From assembly GCA_040220235.1 (NCBI GenBank), contig JAVJTO010000055.1: DNA of 64,000 bases; one strand, 5' to 3'. This DNA is from Coleofasciculus sp. B1-GNL1-01 (GTDB taxonomy: Bacteria; Cyanobacteriota; Cyanobacteriia; Cyanobacteriales; Coleofasciculaceae). A model generated the notes under the pieces. It was not told where the DNA came from, searched no databases, and worked only from the letters and a program-made list of their open reading frames with translations. Shown here in pieces: positions 3,033-25,876 of this stretch. A program made the translations under genes and the position numbers. Positions within the stretch are counted from its first letter, which is position 1. Each line of letters begins with the position of its first letter.

Positions 3033-4187
3033 TCAGCAGCCCCTATCTACAACCCAATCTACCTGATGGGCTTCAGTTAGATCTGGAACCTCTACGCGAT
3101 CGCGCATCCGTTGCATCACTGTTTCCGGCACTTTGGCAGCGCGAGAACGATTGCGCCGCAGCAATTCTTCCCAAGCGGCTTCCAGGTAAACAATGCGAAT
3201 TCGTGCATGGTAGGCAGAAAATAGATTAATTAAGGACGAACGCAGTTGGCGAGAGAGATTGGTCGCATTCCAAACAAAGGATTTTTCGGCTCTCATGTAG
3301 TCTTTCGCGATCGCTCTTGCTCGCTCCGCTACAGCAGTTTGGTCATCTTTGGGAGAAATCTTCATCGCTTGTCGCAGTTCATCCAGGGAGATTACTGTCC
3401 AATCGGGAAGGTTCTCCTGAATCCAAGAGTCTTTGCCAGCACCCGGTAATCCTGACATCAGGACAACCTCGAAGCGAGTGTCATCAAAAGCAGCATAGTT
3501 GGGATCGCGATCGTCTTTTTGGAAATAGACAAATCGACTATGATCTGAGGGGAATGGTTTTGGATAAAATAAGCAATTATTCTCTTGACAATATTCTCGA
3601 AAGAACTGAACACGCTCCAGCAGTTCTAGCGGATCGTCACACACGCGACCCCGAATATCCGCTTCTGCCAAAAGTGCCAGCAGGTCGCAGCGAATCACTT
3701 GACTGGCTTTAATTACGGCACGTTGCGGGTTGGGTTTGTCCCAAAACCAGAGAGGAAGACTACCATGCTGCACCAGGGAGACAATCGCCTCCCGTTGATG
3801 AAAGGGTACGTTGAGTGACCAGAGGATTTGCCGCGCCATTTTTGCCCCTTGGCGGACATGACCCTTGGAGGTGATCCTGCCATCGGCTTCAATTTCAGTA
3901 GCCGCAGGTTTTGCCACATCATGGAGTAAGGCAGCCGCAAATAGAAGCGATCGCTCAATAGGTGGTAACTCCTGCCAAGCGGGTAATGCAATTAATGCCT
4001 CACAAACCAAGCGGGTATGGGTGAGAACATCCCCTTCTGCATGGTAACGGGGGTCTTGGGGACAATCCTGAAGGGATTGAAGCCAGTCAAACTCAGCCTG
4101 AAGCGATGCCCAATCTAGCGTCCAGTCTGGAGGCGTGGGACACCAGGGAAATGACCAGCATAAGGATTGAGAAATAGAAGAAGTCAT
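3033..4187 (-). CDS. HD-domain phosphoesterase fused to P-loop polynucleotide kinase (HD-Pnk, end-healing enzyme)
   Basis: HAEGDVLTHT, ALLHDVAK, GH, HG and EAD HD motifs; GLPGAGKD Walker A, SLDELR, WNATNL, LLRRNRSR. Confidence 0.88.
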   Translation of the reverse strand: MTSSISQSLCWSFPWCPTPPDWTLDWASLQAEFDWLQSLQDCPQDPRYHAEGDVLTHTRLVCEALIALPAWQELPPIERSLLFAAALLHDVAKPAATEIEADGRITSKGHVRQGAKMARQILWSLNVPFHQREAIVSLVQHGSLPLWFWDKPNPQRAVIKASQVIRCDLLALLAEADIRGRVCDDPLELLERVQFFREYCQENNCLFYPKPFPSDHSRFVYFQKDDRDPNYAAFDDTRFEVVLMSGLPGAGKDSWIQENLPDWTVISLDELRQAMKISPKDDQTAVAERARAIAKDYMRAEKSFVWNATNLSRQLRSSLINLFSAYHARIRIVYLEAAWEELLRRNRSRAAKVPETVMQRMRDRVEVPDLTEAHQVDWVVDRGC

Positions 4188-4411: not shown

Positions 4412-5194
4412 TCAAAACTGAAACAAATCGACGCCGGGACGTAGGAGATTGGGGACGATAGGGCGGTTGAGCCAATGGCTATCCGATTGCAGGATGGTGG
4501 TTGAAAAGCTAGGACGGACGTATTTGTAACGAGCCGTTACAGCCGCTCCCTCTTCAACTTTGATATATAACCCTTCCATCAGGGGACTGGGGTCAGTTTG
4601 TTTGAGACTTCGCTCCACATCCAATCCCCGTTCCTCACAGGCTTGACGGAAGCGTTCTAAATGTCCTGACTCAATGAAATTCGAGTGACCCAGCAATCCC
4701 ATTAGCTGCTTGTAGGATGTTAATACACCGGAAAACAGGACGGGTACGGAAACCAGGGGTAATCCGGCGAGTAACTCCTGGCGACGTTGGGTACTGAGAA
4801 ACTGCTGCTGTTCAACATCTAGCACATCAAATTCTAAGAAATAATGGGGTAAGGCGTCGTAAAAGACGGTGTGTTTGGCATAGAGCCATTCGCCATAGAG
4901 GATGTAGCGATCGCCCAGAACCTGCCAAAACGTTCCAGTATGACTGTACGCCCATTGTTTGAACAAGTTAAAGTGTTTTTCTCGCTCTCCTCCAGTTAAA
5001 TAATGTCCCCGGCTTTGCAACAGCATTTGCCCATCAGGAGTAAAACTGATGGCAGCATTGGCTCCATCTACTTTTTCTTCGACTACCACATATTGAGAGG
5101 CGATCGCGCTGAAAGGCACGTTATCCAAGTCTTCATCCCCCGGTTGGAGCCGTGAACCTTGGATATGAGGGGTGCGAGGGAATTTGTACATCAA
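4412..5194 (-). CDS. ATP-dependent RNA ligase (Rnl2-like nucleotidyltransferase)
   Basis: KFPRTPH, motif I EEKVDGAN, III LYGEWL, IIIa FLEFDV, IV MEGLYIK, V RYKYVR. Confidence 0.88.
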   Translation of the reverse strand: MMYKFPRTPHIQGSRLQPGDEDLDNVPFSAIASQYVVVEEKVDGANAAISFTPDGQMLLQSRGHYLTGGEREKHFNLFKQWAYSHTGTFWQVLGDRYILYGEWLYAKHTVFYDALPHYFLEFDVLDVEQQQFLSTQRRQELLAGLPLVSVPVLFSGVLTSYKQLMGLLGHSNFIESGHLERFRQACEERGLDVERSLKQTDPSPLMEGLYIKVEEGAAVTARYKYVRPSFSTTILQSDSHWLNRPIVPNLLRPGVDLFQF

Positions 5195-5974: not shown

Positions 5975-6079
5975 TATAGCAACCGCCATGGCGGTTAGGA
6001 CACATCATTTATGTAGAGACGTTGCATTTTAGTCTCTACAATGGTGCCGAAAGTCCTAATCGATGTGTCTACTGCTATA
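5975..6079. mobile_element. MITE/REPIN-like element with tatagca...tgctata ends and internal gtagagac hairpin
   Basis: terminal inverted 7-mers plus tgtagagac...gtctctaca internal palindrome. Confidence 0.5.
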
Positions 6080-6325
6080 CATAGGACGAATCAAACCTCT
6101 GATTGCTTTGCCCCAGAATATTGACAAACTTTCGACTAGAAACCAACCAAAAATTCAGTCATCTAAGGTTCCGGTTGAGCGGAGACTAACCAACTTGAAC
6201 GATAGACGAAGAGACTTTTTCTAAGAAATAATCGGGAAAGGAGTCGTACAAGACGGCGTGTTTGCTGTATGGTATGGCGGTAGTTAGATAGTTGTTTGCC
6301 CTGAGATCGCAGTTCTATGAGTTGA

Positions 6326-6761: not shown

Positions 6762-7199
6762 GAACGTCGATCGAGTTTATCAAACTCAACTTTTGCGGCA
6801 ATATCCTGAATTAATTGTTCTTATGGTAGGAGAGCCTGGTAAGCTGTCATGCATTTAAATTGGGTATTAGTAGCGAGCAAGATGCTCGCACTACAAGGAT
6901 TTCATGATTATTGATATTAAGGTTTAAATGCCGAACAGCTTAATCCTCCCAAAAGCACGCCAGATCCTGAAATTTTATGCTGGTGTGAAGCCAATGGGTT
7001 TGTTTTGGTGACTAATAATCGTGCTTCTATGCCTGTACATTTAGCCGATCATCTTGCTCAAAATCGCCACATACCTGGTATTTTTATTCTCAATCCCGAT
7101 CTAGGCATTGGTGGAAATCTCGAAGAATTAATTTTAGCTGCTCTTGCTTCCGAAGACCATGAGTATCAGGATCGGATTATTTATTTACCTCTGCCATAG
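6736..7199 (+). pseudogene. DUF5615 PIN-like toxin disrupted by a 99-bp MITE
   Basis: GTG start gives LKYLLDENVDRVYQTQLL...VGEPG; removing 6842-6940 plus one TA restores the frame NPPKSTPDPEILCWCEANGFVLVTNNRASMPVHL. Confidence 0.85.
6842..6940. mobile_element. 99-bp MITE (agctgt...acagct ends, TA target duplication)
   Basis: TA on both sides; related copies at 39232-39330 and about 21635-21877. Confidence 0.85.
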
Positions 7200-9105: not shown

Positions 9106-9735
9106 TCAAGATTGAAGCCAACTTCGCAAGATATTAATTACCACTGGAGTAAAAGGTTCCATCTGACTCTGTTGGGGTTGTGATAGCTCATCGATTAACA
9201 TCTCTAAAAGTTCTTCATCCTCTAAGCCTTCATCGGGGTCTATACCATTTGTCCATAATAAAGCATTAGACAATTGCTTGCGTTTTTCGATCAAGGCACG
9301 GTTATGTTTTTCGTGATCTCCCAAGTTTAAGACTCGGATCGTATCGGTTGCCCGCTCGCTTAACCCTTCTACCCGACCACTAATTTTAAAGCGAAGTTCT
9401 GTTTCACATTCTATCATCAGAGGAGTTAGGGGTAGGGGTTGAGATTTATGAGCATCACCGCATTGATTAGAGGTATTACAACTGGCGACAATATTTGAAA
9501 AGTCAACTGTGCGTCTAGGATTCAATTTTTGAGCTTCTATATGCTCATTGTGGCAAGCATCAATATCTTGGATGCGCTGGCAACAATAGGCACAAAGGTA
9601 GAATTGTTCTGATAGAGCATATTGCCGAATAGTTCGGCGAATCTCTTCGGTTAACTGGTTGTAGCGTCCGTGAGGGTTTGCTCGTTTCCAAACTGTTAAG
9701 CTGGAGGGTTCAGTCCCTTTACTAATGGTTCGCAT
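9106..9735 (-). CDS. HNH endonuclease, PtuB/TIGR02646-like
   Basis: EQFYLCAYCC, HNEHIEAQ, FSNIVASC...CGDAHK, TIRVLNL; overlaps the ATPase stop by 14 bp. Confidence 0.85.
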   Translation of the reverse strand: MRTISKGTEPSSLTVWKRANPHGRYNQLTEEIRRTIRQYALSEQFYLCAYCCQRIQDIDACHNEHIEAQKLNPRRTVDFSNIVASCNTSNQCGDAHKSQPLPLTPLMIECETELRFKISGRVEGLSERATDTIRVLNLGDHEKHNRALIEKRKQLSNALLWTNGIDPDEGLEDEELLEMLIDELSQPQQSQMEPFTPVVINILRSWLQS

Positions 9736-11092
9736 GACGCAATTCTTGTTTACGGATCAGCAATTTTGCTTTGACCAATTCCAGATGATTTGCGGGTAGT
9801 TCCTCAGTTAATTTGGCGAGTCGTTGTTGAGCCTCGGTTAGCTTTGAATCTTGTATGGCATCCAGCAGATCGTTCAGTTCAGCATCAATTTTCTGATTAC
9901 GGATGCTGGTATCCATAACATCTAATAAGACCGTATTAGCATCTTGCCCATACTGAGAGGGCAATTGTCGCAATTCACCATTGGTTAAGGTGTAAACCAA
10001 AACATTTTTACAGTCACTGATCACCAGAGGTGAATGGGTAGTCAGCACAAACTGACAATTTGGGAACGTTGCGATTAGGCGATCGCACAGGCTGCGTTGC
10101 CAAGAGGGATGCAGGTGCAAATCGACTTCATCAATCAAGACGATACCATCTCCTGCTAGAGGATTCTCCAAAGCAGGGTTCAGCATGGCTAAACGGCGAG
10201 CAATATCACCAACCAGAGCCATGAGAGATTTTTCGCCTTGTGAAAGTTGGGCGACATTCAGGGTTTCACCGTTTTTATCAATCGCCATGTAGAGACGGGG
10301 TTTACGACGGACTCTCAGGTTGTCCATCTGGGGCATAAATCGGCGAATGGCGGTGCGAACTGCGGTTAATTGCCGATCTTTGGCTGAGGCATTGAGTTCG
10401 TTTAACCGTTGCCATGCGTCTGGATTGGTTTCCAATAGTGGTTTCAGTTGGTTGAGAACATCTTCAGGCATTGCTGATTCATTTTCGGTATCTTCCCGTT
10501 CCCGAAACCACTCAAAAAAGCGGCGAAAGTCAACCCCCTGACTTAAAGAGTTATCGTAACCATCGAGTTGCAAGAAGGTATGCTTTGTCCTAATTTTTAG
10601 GGGAATATCAAGTACAACGCGCTCGACAGGGTAAAACGCAATGATGGGCAGGCTAGTTTTGTGATCACGGGTAAGGGCATCACGGTAACGATTGGCTAAG
10701 CGAGTGCAGTCGTTGAGATGGCTAGTGTACCGGGCTTTACGTCCTGTTCTATTTTTGGCTAAAGTCCACTTGAAGTGATGCTGGATCTCGTTTTGATTCG
10801 GATTGTCTGATGTTCCAGAAGCATCACAAATTTCTATTTCAATACTGGCGGCGTTGGCGGTGTTAAGTATGGCATCTTCCGGGATAGGGTTACCACTACC
10901 CTTTTCTGTACGTAAACGAGCAGTAAACCAACTCAGGGAAATAGCTAAGGCTTTCAATACAGAGGTTTTACCCGCGCCGTTATTACCCACAAAGACAGTG
11001 ATGTTGCTGGGATTTTGCTCGGTGGGTGCTAAAGGAATTTCCAGGTTTTCAAATAGCCCAATGTTATTTAAGATAACCCGTTGGATTTCCAT
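9722..11092 (-). CDS. ABC/AAA ATPase, PtuA-like (Septu / retron-Ec78 effector type)
   Basis: GNNGAGKT, FFEWFRERED, QLSQGEKSLMALVGDIARRL, LIDEVDLHLHPSWQ, LTTHSP. Confidence 0.85.
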   Translation of the reverse strand: MEIQRVILNNIGLFENLEIPLAPTEQNPSNITVFVGNNGAGKTSVLKALAISLSWFTARLRTEKGSGNPIPEDAILNTANAASIEIEICDASGTSDNPNQNEIQHHFKWTLAKNRTGRKARYTSHLNDCTRLANRYRDALTRDHKTSLPIIAFYPVERVVLDIPLKIRTKHTFLQLDGYDNSLSQGVDFRRFFEWFREREDTENESAMPEDVLNQLKPLLETNPDAWQRLNELNASAKDRQLTAVRTAIRRFMPQMDNLRVRRKPRLYMAIDKNGETLNVAQLSQGEKSLMALVGDIARRLAMLNPALENPLAGDGIVLIDEVDLHLHPSWQRSLCDRLIATFPNCQFVLTTHSPLVISDCKNVLVYTLTNGELRQLPSQYGQDANTVLLDVMDTSIRNQKIDAELNDLLDAIQDSKLTEAQQRLAKLTEELPANHLELVKAKLLIRKQELRHANH

Positions 11093-11215
11093 AGCGGTAA
11101 CGTTCAAACCTCTGAGGTTTTCGACATTGACAACAGTACCTCAAACGGTACTTGAAGGCACTTACCCCTATTATGGTCTCAAAACAGTTGCACGTAGCCA
11201 GTTTCATCCCAGTCT

Positions 11216-12410: not shown

Positions 12411-12468
12411 AGCAAGAGGAGGCGATTGAAATCGCTGCTACACAAACAAAGTCCGCCTGCGCGGACTG
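12411..12468. repeat. Dispersed REP-doublet-like repeat (also 42804-42862; related at about 19878 and 47203)
   Basis: agcaagaggaggcgattgaaatcgctgctacacaaac..gtccgcctgcgcggactg. Confidence 0.75.
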
Positions 12469-12560
12469 GGTAATAACGGGGGTAGCGTTCCCCGGATTTG
12501 GTATAAAGCGGCAACAAAGGAAGCCTACAACCGTACCCATAGGATCGGTGTAGGAGGACG

Positions 12561-14055: not shown

Positions 14056-14305
14056 TTGTAGTATATTGGTAGTACGACTCAACCCCTCATTGTTTCGTGA
14101 GCGATCGCTCAGACTTTGCCTCAGGCAAATCGTAGCACCGTTGCTTCCAGAGGGACAAGGCCGCATACATTACACCCCTTGGCGAAGGTATGTCAGAGCA
14201 AAGAGTCCAGAAGAAAAAAATGGCGACGATTCGTGAAGTCTACGATCGCATTCTCTGGGATGCACGTCTAGACCGCAGCGCCTTTGCGATCGGCTATATC
14301 GAGCG
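14056..14305 (+). pseudogene. 250-bp diverged duplicate of the upstream region and first ~39 codons of the MJ1316-PAP gene (copy of 15762-16011)
   Basis: about 233/250 identity; truncated ORF from ATG 14190, MSEQRVQKKKMATIREVYDRILWDARLDRSAFAIGYIER. Confidence 0.9.
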
Positions 14306-14310
14306 TATGT

Positions 14311-15690
14311 CTATTGAGCAAACTTATCCGTGGGTGTAATAACTATAGTTACTGATGACATTACTTCATAAGGTCTAGTGATTTCCTGGTAATTATCTTC
14401 ATGAAGTCTTATGTGTGTAATATCTGGAAATAATGCTGGTTCTATAGGATATAAAGCGTTTGGATTATGAAACATTACTATACTCTCTGACCATGTTTCT
14501 CGATATGATGGATGATCGATATCAATTGAGAAAGGAATTGGTTCAAATGCTTCTGGATCTGGATCGAAGAGCTTGCCAACTCTAATCATTTTGATAGCTT
14601 GACTACCAAGACCAGCAAGCTTTCCCATTCTATTGAACTTTGTAATAGTTGCACTATTGGTAAATAAAACTGCGCTGATGTTCTCGGTCTCTGGAAGTTT
14701 GAAAAAACCTGATGGGATTCTTTTTCCCTCATACTCATGAAAATCAATATCTTCTTTAACTATGCTGCTATTGCCGTTACTATCCTTTGTCAGTCTGATG
14801 CGTTTAGCATAGAGGTAGTCCGACAAAGCAGTTCTTGACCAAACCATTGATCCGGTCTGGTGATAATCATGTATCGCAATTACCAATGGCTTACCACGGA
14901 CATGTTCCTTTTCCCAATATTTCTTATTTAGCTTTGAGTAAAGAGGACTTCCAAACTTGATAGGCATATAATGCCTAAGCCGTTCGTCTAAATCTTCTTG
15001 ACTCGTTGGTTCTGGCAAGTCTTGTTTGTGTCTACTAGGATTGACGGTAACAGCCTCAATACAGATTATCTGATTAAATCGCTCTACAACATAATCAGGA
15101 GCGTTGAAAGAACGATCTATTTTAAAGCCCGACTCATGAAGATAAACATATAGAAAAATTTCCCAGAGTCTTGAATCAAAACCACTTGTTTGAAAGTCCC
15201 GAATAAAATTACCATCGGGATCAGTGAATGTATAAATAATCTCTTCAATTAGATTTCGAGCCGCCTCAAATCTAGGTTCTTCAACCAAGTAGCGGAAATA
15301 AGGATGTAGTTTTTCTGGTGCAACGATTTGTTTATAGATGTATTGAGGCGGACTATCCTCATCTCCTTGAGGATATTGTTCGTGCTCTTCCTGACTAAAC
15401 TCAGTTAACTTTTTTTCAAGCTCCTTGCGTGCATCTTCAATAGAATTAAAGCTAACTCCAGTGTAGATGCAACGGTAATTTTTGCGTGTGTCTCGACCAA
15501 AAATTACAAAATTCCAATCGTTATCAAACTTATCGATGAATATATTTGCAATAAGAATTTTTCGTTCGTCAGTGTACCACTCGACTTCCTTATTAATAGT
15601 AAAAGCCTCTGTTTCCGGCTTAATTCCTCTGACAAGCGGATCGCGAACATAGCACAGAGCATTAAAGTACTCTTGAGAGATAGGGTGCAT
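14311..15690 (-). CDS. AT-rich hypothetical protein with PD-(D/E)XK-like motif (family often auto-annotated 'glycosaminoglycan attachment protein')
   Basis: FQTSGFDSRLWEIFL, APDYVV...CIEAVTVN, KPLVIAIHD; 459-aa ORF. Confidence 0.6.
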   Translation of the reverse strand: MHPISQEYFNALCYVRDPLVRGIKPETEAFTINKEVEWYTDERKILIANIFIDKFDNDWNFVIFGRDTRKNYRCIYTGVSFNSIEDARKELEKKLTEFSQEEHEQYPQGDEDSPPQYIYKQIVAPEKLHPYFRYLVEEPRFEAARNLIEEIIYTFTDPDGNFIRDFQTSGFDSRLWEIFLYVYLHESGFKIDRSFNAPDYVVERFNQIICIEAVTVNPSRHKQDLPEPTSQEDLDERLRHYMPIKFGSPLYSKLNKKYWEKEHVRGKPLVIAIHDYHQTGSMVWSRTALSDYLYAKRIRLTKDSNGNSSIVKEDIDFHEYEGKRIPSGFFKLPETENISAVLFTNSATITKFNRMGKLAGLGSQAIKMIRVGKLFDPDPEAFEPIPFSIDIDHPSYRETWSESIVMFHNPNALYPIEPALFPDITHIRLHEDNYQEITRPYEVMSSVTIVITPTDKFAQ

Positions 15691-15895
15691 TGCAGAAACT
15701 CTAGAACCTTAAATTGCAATAAATTGGCTGACACTTAGCTTTTCGTGGCAACCAAATACTATTGTAGTATATTAGTAACACACCTGAACCCCTCATTGTT
15801 TCGTTAGCGATCGCTCAGACTTTGCCTCAGGCAAATCGTAGCACCGTTGCTTCCAGAGGGACAAGGCAGCATACATCACACCCCTTGGCGTAGCC

Positions 15896-18800
15896 ATGTC
15901 AGAGCAAAAAGTCCAGAAGAAAAAAATGGCGACGATTCGCGAGATCTACGATCGCATTCTCTGGGATGCACGTCTAGACCGCAGCGCCTTTGCCATCGGC
16001 TATATCGAGCGCAGGTCTGAAGAAGGTATCCGCGAAAAACCATTTACCTCTTGGTCAACCGATGGAGACATCCCATTGCATCGCATCCGCTATATACGCT
16101 GCGGGGAGGAAATCGTTTGGGATCGCGACCAGCACTTGGATCTGTTCTCGGCAGGACAACTGCCTGATGCTGCCTTTCTAGCGCATCCCCAAGAGGAGAC
16201 ACATTGGGCTACAGTCACACCTCCTGCACAAAGCCAACACCTACTATTCAAGCCACGATCGGCCTACCAGTACAGTTCACAAGGTTGGCAACCAACTGAC
16301 CAACCGTCAACAGAGACAACAATAGGTACGCTGACCATTGCCAGTTTTAACGTGCTGTGCGACAGCTACGAGCAGGAACGCATCCAGACAGCACAACGCC
16401 TGCCTGTGATTGTAGAACATCTGCGCCGATGCGATGCGGATATTATCGCGCTACAAGAAGCGACGCCACCCCTGCTAGACGTGTTGTTAAAACAGGATTG
16501 GGTACACTCTTACACCATTTCTGAATCACCCGAAGGACAAACTCTAAAGCCCTATGGTGTTTTGCTTCTATCGCGACTGCCGTTTACGCTGGTCGAGCAT
16601 CAGTATTCGGCGCACAAGCGGGTGCTGGTGGGAACCTGGCAGATTAACGGGCGATCGCTACATTTAGCCGTCGTGCATCTGACCAGCAATCGCGCCCGCA
16701 ATGCTCTTGAAGTCCGGGCAAATCAACGTTCTGTATTACTGGAGTATCTCAAGACGCTGCCAGGAGAGAGTTTCATTGTTGGAGATTTCAACAGCCGAGG
16801 GGATGAGCCAGAGGAGGAGTTGAGCCAAAGCGGTTTTGTCGATGTTTGGACGCTGCTGCATCCTGATGATCCAGGCTACACCTTTGACCCAGAACGTAAC
16901 CCGCTAGCCACATTGATGAGTTTGAACGGTGAGGCGGCGCGGTTTGATCGCATCTTACAGCGCAGTGAAGATGGGTGCTGGATGCCTCGTTCGATGGAGT
17001 TGTTTGCCTGCGAACCTGTAGCGGATACCCAAGGAACCCTTTACCCCTCCGATCATTTCGGCATCCGTGCCGTTTTGGATTACTCAACGCCCACAATAGC
17101 AGCGTTGCAGACAGTGCCGCCAGTCTATCGGAGTGCAGTTGTGGTGATTCCCTCGGCTGATGTGTTACCTGCGATTCAAGCAATTCGCCACCGATATGAT
17201 CGCAGGTTCCACCGTTGGATGCCGCACATCAATTTGCTGTATGGCTTTGTGCCAGAGGAGTATTTTGAAGAAGCAGCGCAAGCGATCGCACTTGCACTTG
17301 CCCAATGGCAACCCTTTGAGATAACGCTCACCAGCTTTGAGGCATTCAAGCACCGCTCTAGCTGTACGGCATGGTTGCGCCCCGTTGCCCAACCCCCAGA
17401 TGCACTCCATCAGTTGCAAGCCGTTCTCCAGCAGTTGTTCCTGCAGTGCGACGAGCAAAGCCAGAAGTCAGCAGCAGGGTTTACACCGCATCTGAGCGTC
17501 GGTCAGTTTCCCACTGCACAGGAAGCCAAAACCCAGCTTCCTTCCTGGCATCCAGTGAGTTTTCTCGTGAACTCCGTAGCCCTGATTAGCCGTCGCGGTG
17601 ATGAGCCGTTTGAGGTGCGATACAGGGTGCATTTAGGGCAAGAGAGCAAGGATTGTAGAGACGCGCCATGGCGCGTCTGGGAAGCTGGGGAAGAGACAAC
17701 TAACCTAATGCAGCGACTGAACCACCTCGAACCCGAGCTGAGTCAGGAGCAACGCCAGCATCGCGAAACCATTTTGGCATTAGTCGAGCAAGCTTGTGCC
17801 GAGTGTTTGGGTTTCCCGGTATCCCTGCATCGAGTAGGTTCGGCACGTTTGGGCGTGCAGAGTCCGCAAAGCGATTTAGATGTTCTTTGCCTGATTCCCG
17901 CGTATCTGTCTGGGGAGGCGTTTTTGGAAAGCGTGGGACAACGCTTGGAGGGATTATGCGATCGCGCCCAAGTCGTCTCATCTGCCAAGATACCTCTGTT
18001 AAGGATGGGATTTGAAGGCGTGTCTGTTGATCTCCTGTATGCCCGCTATCCTTCTGATCTAGGCACAGTTGAGCCGTTCACAGAGGCAGCACGACCCTTT
18101 TTTGATCCAGTGAGTTGGAAAGCACTGGTGGGTTGTTTGGAAGCTGATATCCTTACAGCTATAGTACGCCAGTCTGTACCGCTAGCGTCTTTCCGGCAGC
18201 TTTTGAGGGCAGTGCGGGCGTGGGCGAAGGCACGCCAGATTCACGGCAATGCTTGGGGGTTTCTGGGTAGCTTTTCCTGGGCATTGCTGGCGGCTTGGAG
18301 TTGCACTCGTTTTCCCGAAGCGGGTGCGGATACAGGGCTTGAGGCATTACTTGCTCATTTTTTCCAGGTACTCAACCAACAGGATTGGAGTCAGCCTGTA
18401 GCCTTGACCCCAGCAGGTAAACAATACCAGAAATTGCCCTATGACTGGCTACCTGTCATCACCTCCATTGAACCCTGTCAAAACAGCGCTCGTAATGTCA
18501 CGCGATCAACTGCCCAGATTTTGCGCCGCGAATTCGAGCGAGGGGCCGCTATTTCAGAGCAAGTGTTGGCTGGCAAAATAGGTTGGGACGCTCTTTTCGA
18601 GATAGCTGATTTACCGACGCAATCCGATTCGTTCTTGGTGCTGACGGCAACCTGTGACAACAACGATCGCTTGTCAGCTTGCTGCGGGTGGCTGGAAGGT
18701 CATGCGATCGGATTGGTCATCGCTCTGGAACAGCAACTCGATCTGTATGTTAGACCTTGGACTGGGATTCTGAAAGGGCAAAACAGGATTTGCGCGGTGT

Positions 18801-18961
18801 TAGGATTAAACTCTTCCCAAGACTTTGATGATGTTGCAATTGAGCAGGTTGGTCGAGATTTTGTTCTTCAGTTCAATGCTGATTCTAATGGCAGTATGTT
18901 GGAGTGTGTGGCGTGCGATCGCGTTACACTTGTCCAATATGTAAACCTGCCTGCCAAATAA
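15896..18961 (+). CDS. Multidomain RNA-repair protein: MJ1316 + EEP phosphodiesterase + 2H phosphoesterase + eukaryote-type poly(A) polymerase
   Basis: IYDRILWD...IPLHRIRY...VWDR (MJ1316); SFNVL, ALQE, VGDFN, RFDRI, PSDHFG (EEP); PHINL/PHLSV (2H); GSARLG...SDLDVLC, VDLLYA, VRAWAKARQIHGNAWGFLGSFSW, PVIT..PCQNSARNV (PAP). Confidence 0.85.
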   Translation: MSEQKVQKKKMATIREIYDRILWDARLDRSAFAIGYIERRSEEGIREKPFTSWSTDGDIPLHRIRYIRCGEEIVWDRDQHLDLFSAGQLPDAAFLAHPQEETHWATVTPPAQSQHLLFKPRSAYQYSSQGWQPTDQPSTETTIGTLTIASFNVLCDSYEQERIQTAQRLPVIVEHLRRCDADIIALQEATPPLLDVLLKQDWVHSYTISESPEGQTLKPYGVLLLSRLPFTLVEHQYSAHKRVLVGTWQINGRSLHLAVVHLTSNRARNALEVRANQRSVLLEYLKTLPGESFIVGDFNSRGDEPEEELSQSGFVDVWTLLHPDDPGYTFDPERNPLATLMSLNGEAARFDRILQRSEDGCWMPRSMELFACEPVADTQGTLYPSDHFGIRAVLDYSTPTIAALQTVPPVYRSAVVVIPSADVLPAIQAIRHRYDRRFHRWMPHINLLYGFVPEEYFEEAAQAIALALAQWQPFEITLTSFEAFKHRSSCTAWLRPVAQPPDALHQLQAVLQQLFLQCDEQSQKSAAGFTPHLSVGQFPTAQEAKTQLPSWHPVSFLVNSVALISRRGDEPFEVRYRVHLGQESKDCRDAPWRVWEAGEETTNLMQRLNHLEPELSQEQRQHRETILALVEQACAECLGFPVSLHRVGSARLGVQSPQSDLDVLCLIPAYLSGEAFLESVGQRLEGLCDRAQVVSSAKIPLLRMGFEGVSVDLLYARYPSDLGTVEPFTEAARPFFDPVSWKALVGCLEADILTAIVRQSVPLASFRQLLRAVRAWAKARQIHGNAWGFLGSFSWALLAAWSCTRFPEAGADTGLEALLAHFFQVLNQQDWSQPVALTPAGKQYQKLPYDWLPVITSIEPCQNSARNVTRSTAQILRREFERGAAISEQVLAGKIGWDALFEIADLPTQSDSFLVLTATCDNNDRLSACCGWLEGHAIGLVIALEQQLDLYVRPWTGILKGQNRICAVLGLNSSQDFDDVAIEQVGRDFVLQFNADSNGSMLECVACDRVTLVQYVNLPAK

Positions 18962-19950: not shown

Positions 19951-21294
19951 TTATGCCTGAATTTCAAAATTATTCAGATAAGCAATCGGATCACTCGGAT
20001 CAAATTGGCGTTGATCGATAAAAACGGTAGCAGGTTCTACTTTCATCGGATCACTGGGTAGCTCAATCTTTAATGCCTCCGCCACTTCTGTATAAACGTC
20101 TAACGGATAAATTTCCTCCAGGATTTCATCAGCATCCTTGGGATAATCTTGTTGCTCAATTTGACCCCAACGAATCATCTGAGTCAGCAACCACATCCCA
20201 TGAGAACGCCAGGGATAGTTAACTGGATTCGGCTTTTCTGGATCATCGCTATTTTGACCATAAAACCGATAGAAATTAGGAATCGTTTCCAACCGTTCCT
20301 GGTTATCAAAACCACCATAACTATAGTTACCCAATAAAGTCGGTTCTATAAATTCCTGATCCGTATCCAGATACCTGCTTTGGGCAAGAATTTGGGCAAC
20401 TTCGCGGCGATTTTGGGCTTGCTCACAAAACTGACAGGCTTCGAGAATCGCCGCAACTAAAGCTCTCGCGGTTGCGGGATGTTCCTCCACCCAAGCTTGC
20501 ATTGTGGCTAGCACATTTCCCGGATGTCCCGTCCAAATATTCTGAGAGATATTGCCGATAAATCCATTTCCCTGCAAAACTGTCTGTTGGTTCCAGGGTT
20601 CACTGCTGCTATAGGCATCCATCACCCCGGCTTGAATTTTATAGATCATTTGGGAGGGGGCAATCTCCATAAATTCAACCTCGCTTTCCGGATTAATTCC
20701 CATCGCCGCTAACCAATAGCGGCTAATGTAATAATCCATCGAAGCATTCGACTCTGTGGCAAAGATAGGCGGTTCCTGGAATTTGCGAACATATTGTCTA
20801 TAGGAATCGGCAAACTCCTGAAAGGTGAAATATTCAATCGCTGGTCGAATTCCCGCGTCCCAGGCTTTGGGAGATAAGGTAATGCTACTGCCATGGAGAT
20901 TGAGTACCATCAGGGCAATCATGGGGGCGGATTCTGAGCCTAATTGTGCCATCATTGGCATTCCATACAAGGCTTGAGCCGCATCTAACTGGTAGTCGAG
21001 TAAGCCATCCTGAATTTGATTCCAATTCTCTTGCTTACTCAGGCTAACATTCAGTCCATAGCGAGCAAAAAAGCCTAATTCTTGGGCGATAACGAGGGGC
21101 GCACTTTCGATAATGGGAATAATGCCGAGGTTGAGGTACGTTTTTTCGAGTTTGCCAAAGTCAACATCTGAGACGGAGGAGGATTCAGATGAGTTATTCT
21201 TTCCGGAAGTGGACAAATTCACCGAGTTGCAAGCTGCAAAGGCTAATCCTGTACTTGCCAGACTGGTGTATTTGAGAAAATGGCGGCGCTTCAT
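19951..21294 (-). CDS. CmpA/NrtA-family ABC transporter substrate-binding lipoprotein
   Basis: RRHFLK Tat signal, FAAC lipobox, LNLGIIPIIESAPLVIAQELGFF, RYWLAAMGINP, EPWNQ, YPWRSHGMWLLTQMIRWG. Confidence 0.85.
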   Translation of the reverse strand: MKRRHFLKYTSLASTGLAFAACNSVNLSTSGKNNSSESSSVSDVDFGKLEKTYLNLGIIPIIESAPLVIAQELGFFARYGLNVSLSKQENWNQIQDGLLDYQLDAAQALYGMPMMAQLGSESAPMIALMVLNLHGSSITLSPKAWDAGIRPAIEYFTFQEFADSYRQYVRKFQEPPIFATESNASMDYYISRYWLAAMGINPESEVEFMEIAPSQMIYKIQAGVMDAYSSSEPWNQQTVLQGNGFIGNISQNIWTGHPGNVLATMQAWVEEHPATARALVAAILEACQFCEQAQNRREVAQILAQSRYLDTDQEFIEPTLLGNYSYGGFDNQERLETIPNFYRFYGQNSDDPEKPNPVNYPWRSHGMWLLTQMIRWGQIEQQDYPKDADEILEEIYPLDVYTEVAEALKIELPSDPMKVEPATVFIDQRQFDPSDPIAYLNNFEIQA

Positions 21295-21349
21295 GTTCTT
21301 GTATTCTCACCCAATAAATTATAGATGCTGACTTGAATCTACCGCGTTT

Positions 21350-21617
21350 GGGGAAGATGGGGGAGATGGGGGAGATGGGGGAGATGGGGAAGATGGGGGA
21401 GATGGGGGAGATGGGGGAGATGGGGGAGATGGGGGAGATGGGGAAGATGGGGGAGATGGGGAAGATGGGGGAGATGAGGGAGATGGGGAAGATGGGGGAG
21501 ATGGGGGAGATGGGGGAGATGGGGGAGATGGGGGAGATGGGGGAGATGGGGGAGATGGGGGAGATGAGGGAGATGGGGGAGATGAGGGAGATGGGGAAGA
21601 TGGGGGAGATGGGGGAG
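21350..21617 (+). repeat. Tandem 9-mer (GGGGAGATG)n, about 30 copies
   Basis: direct reading; variants GGGAAGATG and AGGGAGATG. Confidence 0.95.
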
Positions 21618-21634
21618 AAAAATTCAATCTTGAA

Positions 21635-21877
21635 CGTCAATAATAGCAAAATCCTTGTAGTGCGAGCATCTTGCTCGCTACATTGAACATCTTGCTCGCT
21701 ACATTGAACATCTTGCTCGCTACATTGAACATCTTGCTCGCTACATTGAACATCTTGCTCGCTACATTGAACATCTTGCTCGCTACATTGAACATCTTGC
21801 TCGCTACATTGAGCATCTTGCTCGCTACCTTGAACATCTTGCTCGCTACTAATACCCAATTTAGATGCATGACAGCT
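21635..21877. mobile_element. Copy of the 99-bp MITE, one end lost, with internal 21-bp unit amplified 9x
   Basis: aaatccttgtagtgcgag(catcttgctcgctacattgaa)x9...atgcatgacagct-TA. Confidence 0.8.
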
Positions 21878-21888
21878 TATCCGATCAG

Positions 21889-22485
21889 TCAGGTATCGAC
21901 TACCGTTTTACTAATCGGTTGACCTGTCCAAACGATAACCGATAAAAGTTGGCTACGCGGTTCCGCCTTAAATCCCCCAACCACGGGTTTAATTTCCAGG
22001 AAAAATATTTCCCAACACGCTGGTTCCATGACCCACTGTATCGGTGTGTTCGGCAACTGGATGCCGCATCGTTGGACTGATGATCCATAAATCGGGCGAA
22101 TCGTTGAAGGACAAAACAGTAAGTCAATAACGTTCGGTTTAAACCCATATTTAGCCGCAAAATAGGTGACATCTTCCCATTGATAAATTAACTTGTCGTT
22201 CGTCCCTAAATAGTCATCATTTTCTGAACAATTGGCTCCAAGTAACCACACTAATCTAGAGCATATCACTTCCACGCGCAGGCGATCGCTCCTAAGTAGG
22301 TTTACCTCTTCAGGCAGCAAGATAGCGTCAGATTTGGGCGACCAAATCTGGACGGAGGTATTGCCATCAATGGACACCTCTCTCAAGATGAGATGGGGCG
22401 GATATCCGGCAGGATACGCAGGCGCGATCGCCAGTTCCTCCGGAATGAATCGATTAATCATATTACCTACTGCAATGTCTGCCAC
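21889..22485 (-). CDS. Hypothetical protein
   Basis: 198-aa ORF, no motif recognised. Confidence 0.5.
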   Translation of the reverse strand: MADIAVGNMINRFIPEELAIAPAYPAGYPPHLILREVSIDGNTSVQIWSPKSDAILLPEEVNLLRSDRLRVEVICSRLVWLLGANCSENDDYLGTNDKLIYQWEDVTYFAAKYGFKPNVIDLLFCPSTIRPIYGSSVQRCGIQLPNTPIQWVMEPACWEIFFLEIKPVVGGFKAEPRSQLLSVIVWTGQPISKTVVDT

Positions 22486-25028: not shown

Positions 25029-25531
25029 GGTAAAAGGTAAATTCCGCCAGAAATTAGGGTGAGGACAACCGATAACCAAAATAGGACAAGGGATGGCATC
25101 TCCCACACCTGCGGAAGTGGTGCAATTAATAGGGCAACTGCTGTAATTTGAGTTACGGTTTTGAGTTTGCCCCAAATATTTGCGCCACTAATTTCCTGGG
25201 TCAAATTGGGGTTCACTCGCCAACCCGCGATCGCTAATTCCCGCGCTAAAATCAGAAACACCCCCCAAGCGGGAACCTGACCCAATTCGATTAAGGCTAA
25301 AAGGGGGGCTAAGACTAATAATTTATCCACTAACGGATCAAGAAATTTTCCTAAATCCGTAACTTGATCCAGTTTTCGCGCCAGATAACCATCTAACCAA
25401 TCCGTACCTGCGGCGATGAGAAAGATTGCCAGACAAATCCAGCGCGTCTGATCTGTGGGATCATGCAGTCCGTATAGAATAAAGGGCAATCCGAGTAATC
25501 GAGAAAATGTAATCCATGTGGGTAGTGTCAT
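24974..25531 (-). CDS. pgsA: CDP-diacylglycerol--glycerol-3-phosphate 3-phosphatidyltransferase
   Basis: TDWLDGYLARKLDQVTDLGKFLDPLVDK; ARE...GWR; GKLKT. Confidence 0.9.
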   Translation of the reverse strand: MTLPTWITFSRLLGLPFILYGLHDPTDQTRWICLAIFLIAAGTDWLDGYLARKLDQVTDLGKFLDPLVDKLLVLAPLLALIELGQVPAWGVFLILARELAIAGWRVNPNLTQEISGANIWGKLKTVTQITAVALLIAPLPQVWEMPSLVLFWLSVVLTLISGGIYLLPQLAANIWSSKEKSTSAS

Positions 25532-25545
25532 CAGATTTATGAATC

Positions 25546-25745
25546 AGGGCGGGTTTTGTTGTTCTGTTATCGGTGGGGAGGGCGGGTTTTGCTGTTCTGT
25601 TATCGGTGGGGAGGGCGGGTTTTGTTGTTCCGTTATCGGTGGGGAGGGCGGGTTTTGCTGTTCTGTTATCGGTGACTAGCTGAATTGAGTCCCTAAACCC
25701 GCCCCTACAATTGTCCCTAAACCCGCCCCTACAATTGTCCCTGAA
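25546..25745. repeat. REPIN-like element with 33-bp (x4) and 24-bp (x2-3) tandem units
   Basis: gggcgggttttg.tgttc.gttatcggtggggag and gtccctaaacccgcccctacaatt; family also at about 39166-39410, 42202-42265, 58206-58267. Confidence 0.85.
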
Positions 25746-25876
25746 CATTATTTTTTTAGTTTAATCGAGTTAGGATTAGAAAATCTTAATTGCTGGATGT
25801 TGTTTAAATATTAAGGATTGAAAAATTACAAAGAATTTTTTCGGCAATAGCAACTTAAACCGAGATACACGTCGGT

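Follow-up and report, generated by a model that had tools for sequence, protein, structure and literature searches.

Described RNA repair systems share a logic in which broken ends are healed, lost nucleotides are replaced and the strands are ligated, as outlined for RlaP and for bacterial Pnkp/Rnl systems in passages of PMC7824862. According to passages of PMC9503650 and PMC7824862, 2H enzymes open the cyclic ends left by metal-independent ribonucleases, and kinases and phosphatases make the ends ready for an ATP-dependent ligase. Where nucleotides have been lost, ligase-associated Pol-beta nucleotidyltransferases (RlaP) are predicted in the same passages to put them back before the ends are joined. 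The MJ1316 domain, as stated in a passage of PMC6514570 that cites Burroughs and Aravind (2016), recognizes 2'-3' cyclic ends and is fused to RNA-repair domains. Here we analyze a stretch of 64,000 nucleotides (the window) from Coleofasciculus sp. B1-GNL1-01 (assembly GCA_040220235.1, contig JAVJTO010000055.1), and in it one gene, hereafter the fusion, that joins MJ1316 to an EEP domain, a 2H phosphoesterase and a class I poly(A) polymerase (PAP) fold. The fusion is an intact new member of a known, database-annotated and widespread family, and in many related loci it lies near an RNA ligase and an HD-domain kinase. We favor, at a probability of about 0.6, a role for it in an accessory system that repairs RNA breaks, as the arm that heals 3' ends and extends them again.

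The open reading frame of the fusion encodes 1021 residues without an internal stop and is laid out as follows.

15896..18961, + strand: fusion gene, MJ1316-EEP-2H-class I poly(A)-polymerase fold (from a 1021-residue open reading frame, Pfam and a structure model)
15926..16126, + strand: MJ1316 domain, residues 11-77, a predicted reader of 2',3'-cyclic-phosphate ends (role from a passage of PMC6514570)
16325..17086, + strand: TDP2-like EEP domain, residues 144-397 (from catalytic residues and from fold and sequence match to TDP2)
17117..17641, + strand: 2H phosphoesterase, residues ~408-582, with H444-x-N and H532-x-S (from Pfam, alignment and structure comparison)
17690..18958, + strand: canonical-PAP-like module, residues 599-1021, with catalytic, central and C-terminal RNA-binding-type domains (from sequence and model alignment)

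Pfam matches, all above cut-offs, cover MJ1316 (residues 11-77, E 6e-20), EEP (149-356, 2e-13), 2H (423-570, 3e-35), PAP_NTPase (647-718, 9e-8) and PAP_central (765-902, 1e-28). A 64-sequence alignment also served as input for an AlphaFold model (mean pLDDT 86.7, pTM 0.49). A first description of this DNA, made from the letters alone (the sequence-only reading), had called a four-domain protein ending in a class I PAP and had proposed per-domain hidden Markov models (HMMs) and structure prediction as a check; the Pfam domains, together with the PAP and EEP folds in the model (Z 38.8 and Z 28.8, detailed below), bear it out. In the MJ1316 domain, H62 and R63 are invariant among the 64 aligned relatives, the set used for residue counts below unless stated otherwise.

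The EEP model (residues 144-397) superposes on TDP2 with Z 28.8 and a root-mean-square deviation (rmsd) of 2.1, and matches it in sequence at E 3e-12. TDP2 is the nearest EEP relative by sequence and fold, with the deadenylases CCR4 and nocturnin scoring lower. N152, E188, H261, D297, N299, D351, D386 and H387 are invariant in 64/64 relatives; by this alignment the domain carries the full TDP2-type catalytic set (N/E/H/D-x-N/D/SDH), and a 5'-tyrosyl phosphodiesterase activity is putative. The nearest solved relative of the 2H domain is B. subtilis BSU11850 (2D4G). The two motifs of the fusion's 2H domain, H444-INL and H532-LSV, had been read as HxS/T-like; both are present, with H532 kept in 64/64 relatives and H444 in 63/64, but the first is H-x-N and not H-x-S/T (that position is N in 35 relatives, T in 28 and a gap in one). 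Family members that have no 2H or no EEP domain exist (P0124, P0142, P0149, P0151, P0164 and P0210), and the two healing domains may therefore be partly redundant. A multi-copy short repeat element near 17654 overlaps the linker between 2H and PAP (near residues 584-601, low pLDDT), whose length varies among relatives.

The polymerase module aligns with human PAP-gamma (residues 599-1021 on 36-501; 411 residues, Z 38.8, rmsd 2.2, 26% identity), and in this model all three PAP domains are present, including a C-terminal RNA-binding-type domain on which the sequence-only reading was silent. Its best sequence matches in the PDB are canonical eukaryotic PAPs (E 2e-38 to 1e-31), with terminal uridylyltransferases matching only at E 0.013 or worse. 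The fusion gives no match to PF01743 (PolyA_pol head domain) at E <= 0.01, in agreement with the initial view that this part tracks canonical eukaryotic PAP and not PcnB/CCA enzymes; it resembles class II PcnB/CCA-adding enzymes in its predicted template-independent nucleotidyltransfer to RNA 3' ends but belongs to a different class. In the textbook picture, RNA tailing in bacteria is the work of class II enzymes or polynucleotide phosphorylase (PNPase). The catalytic motifs are G648-S649-A-R-L-G, D660-L-D662 and V-D712-LLYA, followed by R771-AVRAWAKARQIHGNAWGFLGSFSW and P853-VITSIEPCQNSARNV. The sequence-only reading had named the same catalytic motif; it is there, with two residues and not one between GS and LG. 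G648, S649, D660, D662 and D712 are invariant in 64/64 relatives.

We compared the base pocket across 85 stand-alone, 74 fused and 25 further actinomycete PAP domains, omitting 6 fragments labelled stand-alone that fell in the fused clade, and read pocket residues in bovine numbering from an alignment of the fusion to PAPs in the PDB. GS and the three aspartates are kept in 71/74 fused, 25/25 sampled actinomycete and 83/85 stand-alone domains, and the fusion retains the equivalents of bovine K232, N239, T317 and N324. We take N202, V206, V247 and T317 to be adenine-pocket residues, and the positions that differ to contact base or primer. Of the conserved adenine-pocket set, the fusion keeps only T856 (T317); V745, E749 and F793 differ. 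The same change runs through the family: N202 is N in 83/85 stand-alone PAPs and in only 4/74 fused domains, V206 is replaced by E or D in 73/74, V247 is mostly F, Y or L, Y327 is replaced by R in 66/74, and T317 is retained in 57/74. Divergence is greater still in the actinomycete copies. We therefore read the fusion, on its residues, as a PAP-fold transferase and not an orthodox PAP. It is very likely an active terminal transferase by its predicted active site; because the pocket is altered relative to eukaryotic PAP, a preference for ATP has about even odds, and the PAP-like A-tail assumed at the outset does not sit well with so systematic a change. Compared with the canonical enzymes (human PAP-gamma 4LT6, bovine 1F5A, yeast Pap1), all three structural domains align, and the differences are three added end-processing domains and the changed base-pocket and primer positions.

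Clustering the neighbours of related loci yields two recurring genes, a PF09414 RNA ligase and an HD plus P-loop kinase, and the window carries both.

4412..5194, - strand: ATP-dependent RNA-ligase-family gene, PF09414, motif I EEKVDG; homolog of Deinococcus DRB0100/LigB (25% identity, pairwise E 3e-11)
3033..4187, - strand: HD-phosphoesterase plus P-loop polynucleotide kinase; homolog of Deinococcus DRB0098 (28% identity, pairwise E 2e-22)

Here the two genes lie 11-12 kb upstream of the fusion, separated from it by inserted cassettes; in domain order and catalytic residues the window copy shows no essential difference from the rest of its family. We scanned 40 loci with local HMMs and counted those that hold the 5' end of the gene and at least 0.9 kb upstream; the 7 set aside (without the gene's 5' end or the upstream flank) held no partners, and a weak kinase match in locus L122 was left out. 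Ligase and/or HD-kinase lie near the fusion in 18/33 counted loci (18/40 scanned), and in 13 of these 18 a partner stands directly upstream on the same strand within ~300 bp. The linkage spans cyanobacteria, actinomycetes and one probably Bacteroidota contig (L048), in which two ligases lie upstream of the fusion and the HD-kinase downstream. In Embleya and Nonomuraea, the stop codon of a ligase-kinase fusion overlaps the start codon of the PAP-fusion gene. Neither of these two ligase-kinase proteins gives an HD match, which fits the PAP fusion supplying 3' healing. Since the ligase occurs in only 24/400 sampled genomes of the cyanobacterial phylum, chance adjacency is unlikely. No gene besides these two recurs beyond close kin among the 70 chosen neighbour proteins that were scanned, a selection and not all open reading frames.

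Over their full length, the window ligase and HD-kinase are homologous to proteins of the Deinococcus radiodurans ligB operon (DRB0100, DRB0099, DRB0098), and the gene order is shared; the start and K40 of DRB0100 agree with the primer table of PMC1997131. The 8 kb of that operon region that we examined hold no fusion gene, and the operon carries a poly(ADP-ribose) glycohydrolase gene instead, according to a passage of PMC5397189. In locus L045 (6747-7667), an ADP-ribosylglycohydrolase gene stands directly upstream of the fusion and brings to mind the glycohydrolase of the Deinococcus operon, a hint that ends may be cleared of ADP-ribose adducts. Relative to RlaP and bacterial Pnkp/Rnl systems, the fusion has a different nucleotidyltransferase family (the canonical-PAP fold) and different healing domains, and no Hen1 methylase is among its recurring neighbours. 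Directly downstream of the HD-kinase, the window also encodes an NYN-domain predicted ribonuclease (2097-2783, - strand), a possible source of RNA breaks; in one relative checked, the NYN gene is present elsewhere.

The coding sequence shows purifying selection on every domain: against three relatives, dN/dS (the ratio of nonsynonymous to synonymous substitution rates) is 0.18-0.21 overall, 0.06-0.22 for the MJ1316, EEP, 2H and PAP catalytic and central domains (in 3/3 relatives) and 0.32-0.56 for the C-terminal domain. The gene carries 4 HIP1 sites, a count that not one of 2000 synonymous-codon shuffles attained (mean 0.54), and the window holds 56 against 0.7 expected. The sequence-only reading had noted several HIP1 sites and taken them for long residence in the lineage. 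The count stands, and long residence holds at the level of the family, given the HIP1 excess and kin copies 82-90% identical; the gene itself is accessory and often broken or lost within the genus.

Of 7997 candidates scored, 914 are relatives at E <= 0.001, and the PAP region matches 1245 50%-clusters at E <= 1e-10, in which fused and stand-alone forms are mixed. The MJ1316-EEP-2H-PAP order recurs in 34 divergent 50%-cluster representatives. Databases name these proteins 'poly(A) polymerase', 'DUF504 domain-containing' and 'RNA repair domain-containing protein', and among named relatives the nearest are Coleofasciculus proteins (90% identity). Fused members with names are found in cyanobacteria (Nostoc sp. 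T09, Calothrix NIES-2098), actinomycetes (Streptomyces, with S. viridosporus, Nonomuraea and Kitasatospora), Bacteroidota (Aureispira, Flammeovirgaceae) and Myxococcales; in eukaryotes, Capsaspora and Paratrimastix have fused members and Balamuthia a form without a 2H match. Of nine stand-alone PAPs looked up, six are named, and all six are eukaryotic. The family thus appears patchy but broad, reaching cyanobacteria, actinomycetes, Bacteroidota, myxobacteria and several protists. Searches of IMG/VR contigs and GenBank phages gave no match, and no fused form longer than 1787 residues was found, which is weak evidence. Burroughs and Aravind reportedly discussed the MJ1316-fusion architecture in 2016 (NAR 44:8525). 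A literature search returned no biochemical study of the fusion, as the earlier reading had supposed, although the polymerase term probably missed the printed form and the negative is weak.

Within the cyanobacterial phylum, the fusion was found in 1/400 other sampled genomes. Among nine Coleofasciculus genomes, it is whole in two, runs to a contig end in one, is partial or a remnant in three, and is represented in the last three only by EEP paralogs or small pieces; one copy sits on a conjugative Calothrix plasmid. This distribution looks like that of an accessory, conditionally useful gene that is often broken or lost in the genus. Since the host genome also encodes two class II nucleotidyltransferases (PF01743, on other contigs), two RtcB and one Tpt1, tRNA housekeeping is not the role of the fusion.

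We infer the chemical steps, the substrate and the nucleotide added from the observations above, on domains and their folds, on catalytic residues and purifying selection, and on gene linkage. After cleavage by a ribonuclease, MJ1316 would hold the resulting 2',3'-cyclic-phosphate end and the 2H domain would open its ring; the phosphate that remains, or an adduct that blocks the end, would be taken off by the TDP2-like domain. Once the 3'-OH is free, the PAP-fold module would extend it by one or a few ribonucleotides. The 5'-OH would receive a phosphate from the linked HD-kinase, and the LigB-like ligase would join the two ends. The substrate is probably tRNA or rRNA cut by ribotoxins. Healing an end and then adding nucleotides was already part of the sequence-only reading and, like the domain identities it gave, agrees with all the evidence; that reading missed the linked ligase and HD-kinase, which move the likely purpose from tailing alone to healing, extension and sealing. 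Bacteria here retain a complete eukaryote-type PAP fold under selection, probably as part of a kit for repairing ribotoxin damage. The fusion, ligase and kinase together bear on the role of ligase-associated nucleotidyltransferases in RNA repair.

Several points weigh against this RNA-break repair role. TDP2 acts on 5' adducts and not on 3' phosphates, and a long A-tail would hinder faithful ligation, not help it. Neither ligase nor kinase lies nearby in 15/33 counted loci, and in genome G206 the ligase is 5.6 Mb away from the fusion. The ligase is much more frequent than the fusion (24 versus 1 of 400 genomes of the phylum), and the ligase-kinase pair therefore works without it; among 60 relatives, 16 have the ligase. 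The linked loci are also not independent, since L035 and L051 are near-identical, several contigs form one apparent series, and the window, L119 and L120 are kin. The HMMs used for counting were built from 5 positive loci, with Pfam independently naming the same partners. Finally, according to passages of PMC1997131, the ligase homolog from Deinococcus adenylylates itself yet joined neither DNA nor RNA when assayed in vitro; its kinase partner is active on DNA, and the operon is radiation-induced. We raise the fusion as a possible missing partner or substrate-maker for this LigB-type ligase that failed alone in vitro.

The best-surviving alternative is that the fusion heals and tails RNA for decay: it would unblock cyclic-phosphate fragments and add poly(A) for PNPase or RNase II/R, with ligase and kinase repairing what is repairable and the fusion clearing the remainder. 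The retention of the full three-domain processive PAP fold, RNA-binding-type domain included, is what one would look for in such an enzyme, as are the 15/33 loci without ligase neighbours; passages of PMC1635327 describe bacterial poly(A) tails as promoting decay, with PNPase as the cyanobacterial tailing enzyme. The tight and sometimes translationally coupled linkage to ligase and kinase in distant phyla argues otherwise, no exoribonuclease recurs among the 70 neighbour proteins, and the altered base pocket speaks against a plain A-tailer. Overall, we think decay an unlikely purpose.

The same partners could instead serve DNA ends, as in the Deinococcus ligB operon, through TDP2-like removal of 5' adducts, healing by the HD-kinase, extension by a terminal transferase and ligation. 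The EEP domain is indeed nearest to TDP2 by sequence and fold, the partners are homologous to the radiation-induced DRB0100 and DRB0098, and a passage of PMC5397189 reports that a Deinococcus RNA ligase aids survival of ionizing radiation. But MJ1316 and 2H address 2',3'-cyclic phosphates, which require ribose, and the polymerase fold is an RNA-tailing fold. With no Ku or other DNA-repair gene recurring among the 70 neighbours, DNA-end repair is in our estimate quite improbable. A slightly poorer prospect still is add-and-trim at tRNA 3' ends, in which the PAP fold would add C or A to ribotoxin-clipped tRNA and the EEP domain would trim wrong additions. It could draw on the E/D (73/74) and Arg (66/74) that stand near the pocket where eukaryotic PAP has hydrophobic and aromatic residues, and on the lower-scoring deadenylases CCR4 and nocturnin among EEP relatives. 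The genome, however, already holds two class II nucleotidyltransferases, tRNA genes are unlinked (1 tRNA in 18 loci), and CCA repair requires no ligase. Nucleotide-signal synthesis, left open as a role in the sequence-only reading, is unlikely, and a CBASS-like second-messenger synthase with its degraders very unlikely indeed, since weak CBASS cyclase HMM matches (E 0.0013; E 0.008) and a defence-rich neighbourhood with PD-T7-1 and Septu are met by a CBASS CD-NTase HMM score of 17.9 bits against a cut-off of 200, far higher PAP scores by sequence and structure, no recurring sensor or effector gene among the 70 neighbours, and defence genes that are separate insertions.

The resemblance to eukaryotic PAP also raises a question of descent. 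We built a PAP tree of 73 sequences, comprising 51 fused forms and 22 of 85 stand-alone forms chosen at random. In it, a single starred and well-supported branch (SH-aLRT 99, length 0.62) sets the stand-alone PAPs apart, and the protist fused forms fall among bacterial ones. Midpoint roots land among fused forms, which proves nothing, and in a non-reversible-model root test of 40 sequences the best 25 positions lie within ~3 log-likelihood units, most of them not rejected. Sister-group, bacteria-to-eukaryote and eukaryote-to-bacteria histories may all be compatible with these trees. One conjecture, doubtful but worth stating, is that eukaryotic mRNA PAP was recruited from this bacterial RNA-repair family, whose PAP fold with its re-wired pocket (acidic plus Arg) would fill missing nucleotides at healed breaks for the ligase and not make mRNA tails. 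The fusion bears in any case on the evolution of nucleoside triphosphate specificity in the PAP fold and on the origin of eukaryotic polyadenylation.

Around the fusion, the window bears marks of repeated insertion, and four further features lie there.

15762..15895, + strand: leader and putative promoter of the fusion, 87-97% conserved in close relatives
14056..14312, + strand: 257-nucleotide duplicate (93%) of the fusion leader and first ~40 codons; an insertion scar, not a separate gene
14311..15690, - strand: PD-T7-1-like defence gene between the duplicates, 37.7% GC, 0 HIP1, in 1/41 genomes
9106-11107, - strand: Septu-type PtuA/PtuB pair (PADLOC E 6e-167 and 2e-97), common to the genus

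The fusion leader is duplicated around cargo in two strains, at 14056-14312/15762-16018 in the window and at 4042-4217/7784-7952 in L032, and the cargo differs, being PD-T7-1 in the former and genes for a 404-residue open reading frame, PIN and TPR in the latter. This suggests that the leader is a reusable integration hotspot, entered by single crossover into short homology. Elsewhere, a 100-nucleotide HIP1-bearing repeat (7718-7817/11216-11315) brackets a restriction-endonuclease-like open reading frame (labelled by eye, with no Pfam match), XisI and Septu PtuAB, and 111 nucleotides of the ligase gene recur as a copy 2.3 kb away (4892-5002/7193-7303). Window positions 2-20 kb look as if built by cassette accretion. 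We considered PD-T7-1 and Septu as parts of the repair system and rejected them: duplication scars bracket both, PD-T7-1 is strain-specific, and neither recurs outside the genus in the compared loci. Because they are bracketed by repeats, and because PD-T7-1 is AT-rich, HIP1-free and present in 1/41 genomes, we regard the defence genes as passengers.

Promoter and terminator scans came out at chance level, with a weak sigma70-like match in the leader (9 found, 6.3 expected), and no Rfam RNAs were found in window positions 1-30000. RNA-library contigs of related strains (3 metatranscriptome runs and 1 unlabelled) span the fusion gene, but intergenic DNA has similar contig depth in the same runs, so transcription of the fusion cannot be concluded from them. 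The PD-T7-1 gene is nearly without cover in these contigs. Besides the element in the linker, multi-copy short repeats with very high contig depth and many loose ends lie at about 4240, 6000-6080, 6840-6942 and 12428-12510. Downstream of the fusion, low-complexity tracts of short tandem repeats with repetitive pseudo-open reading frames occupy window positions 21194-21922 and 25455-25748 and are typical of cyanobacterial repeats.

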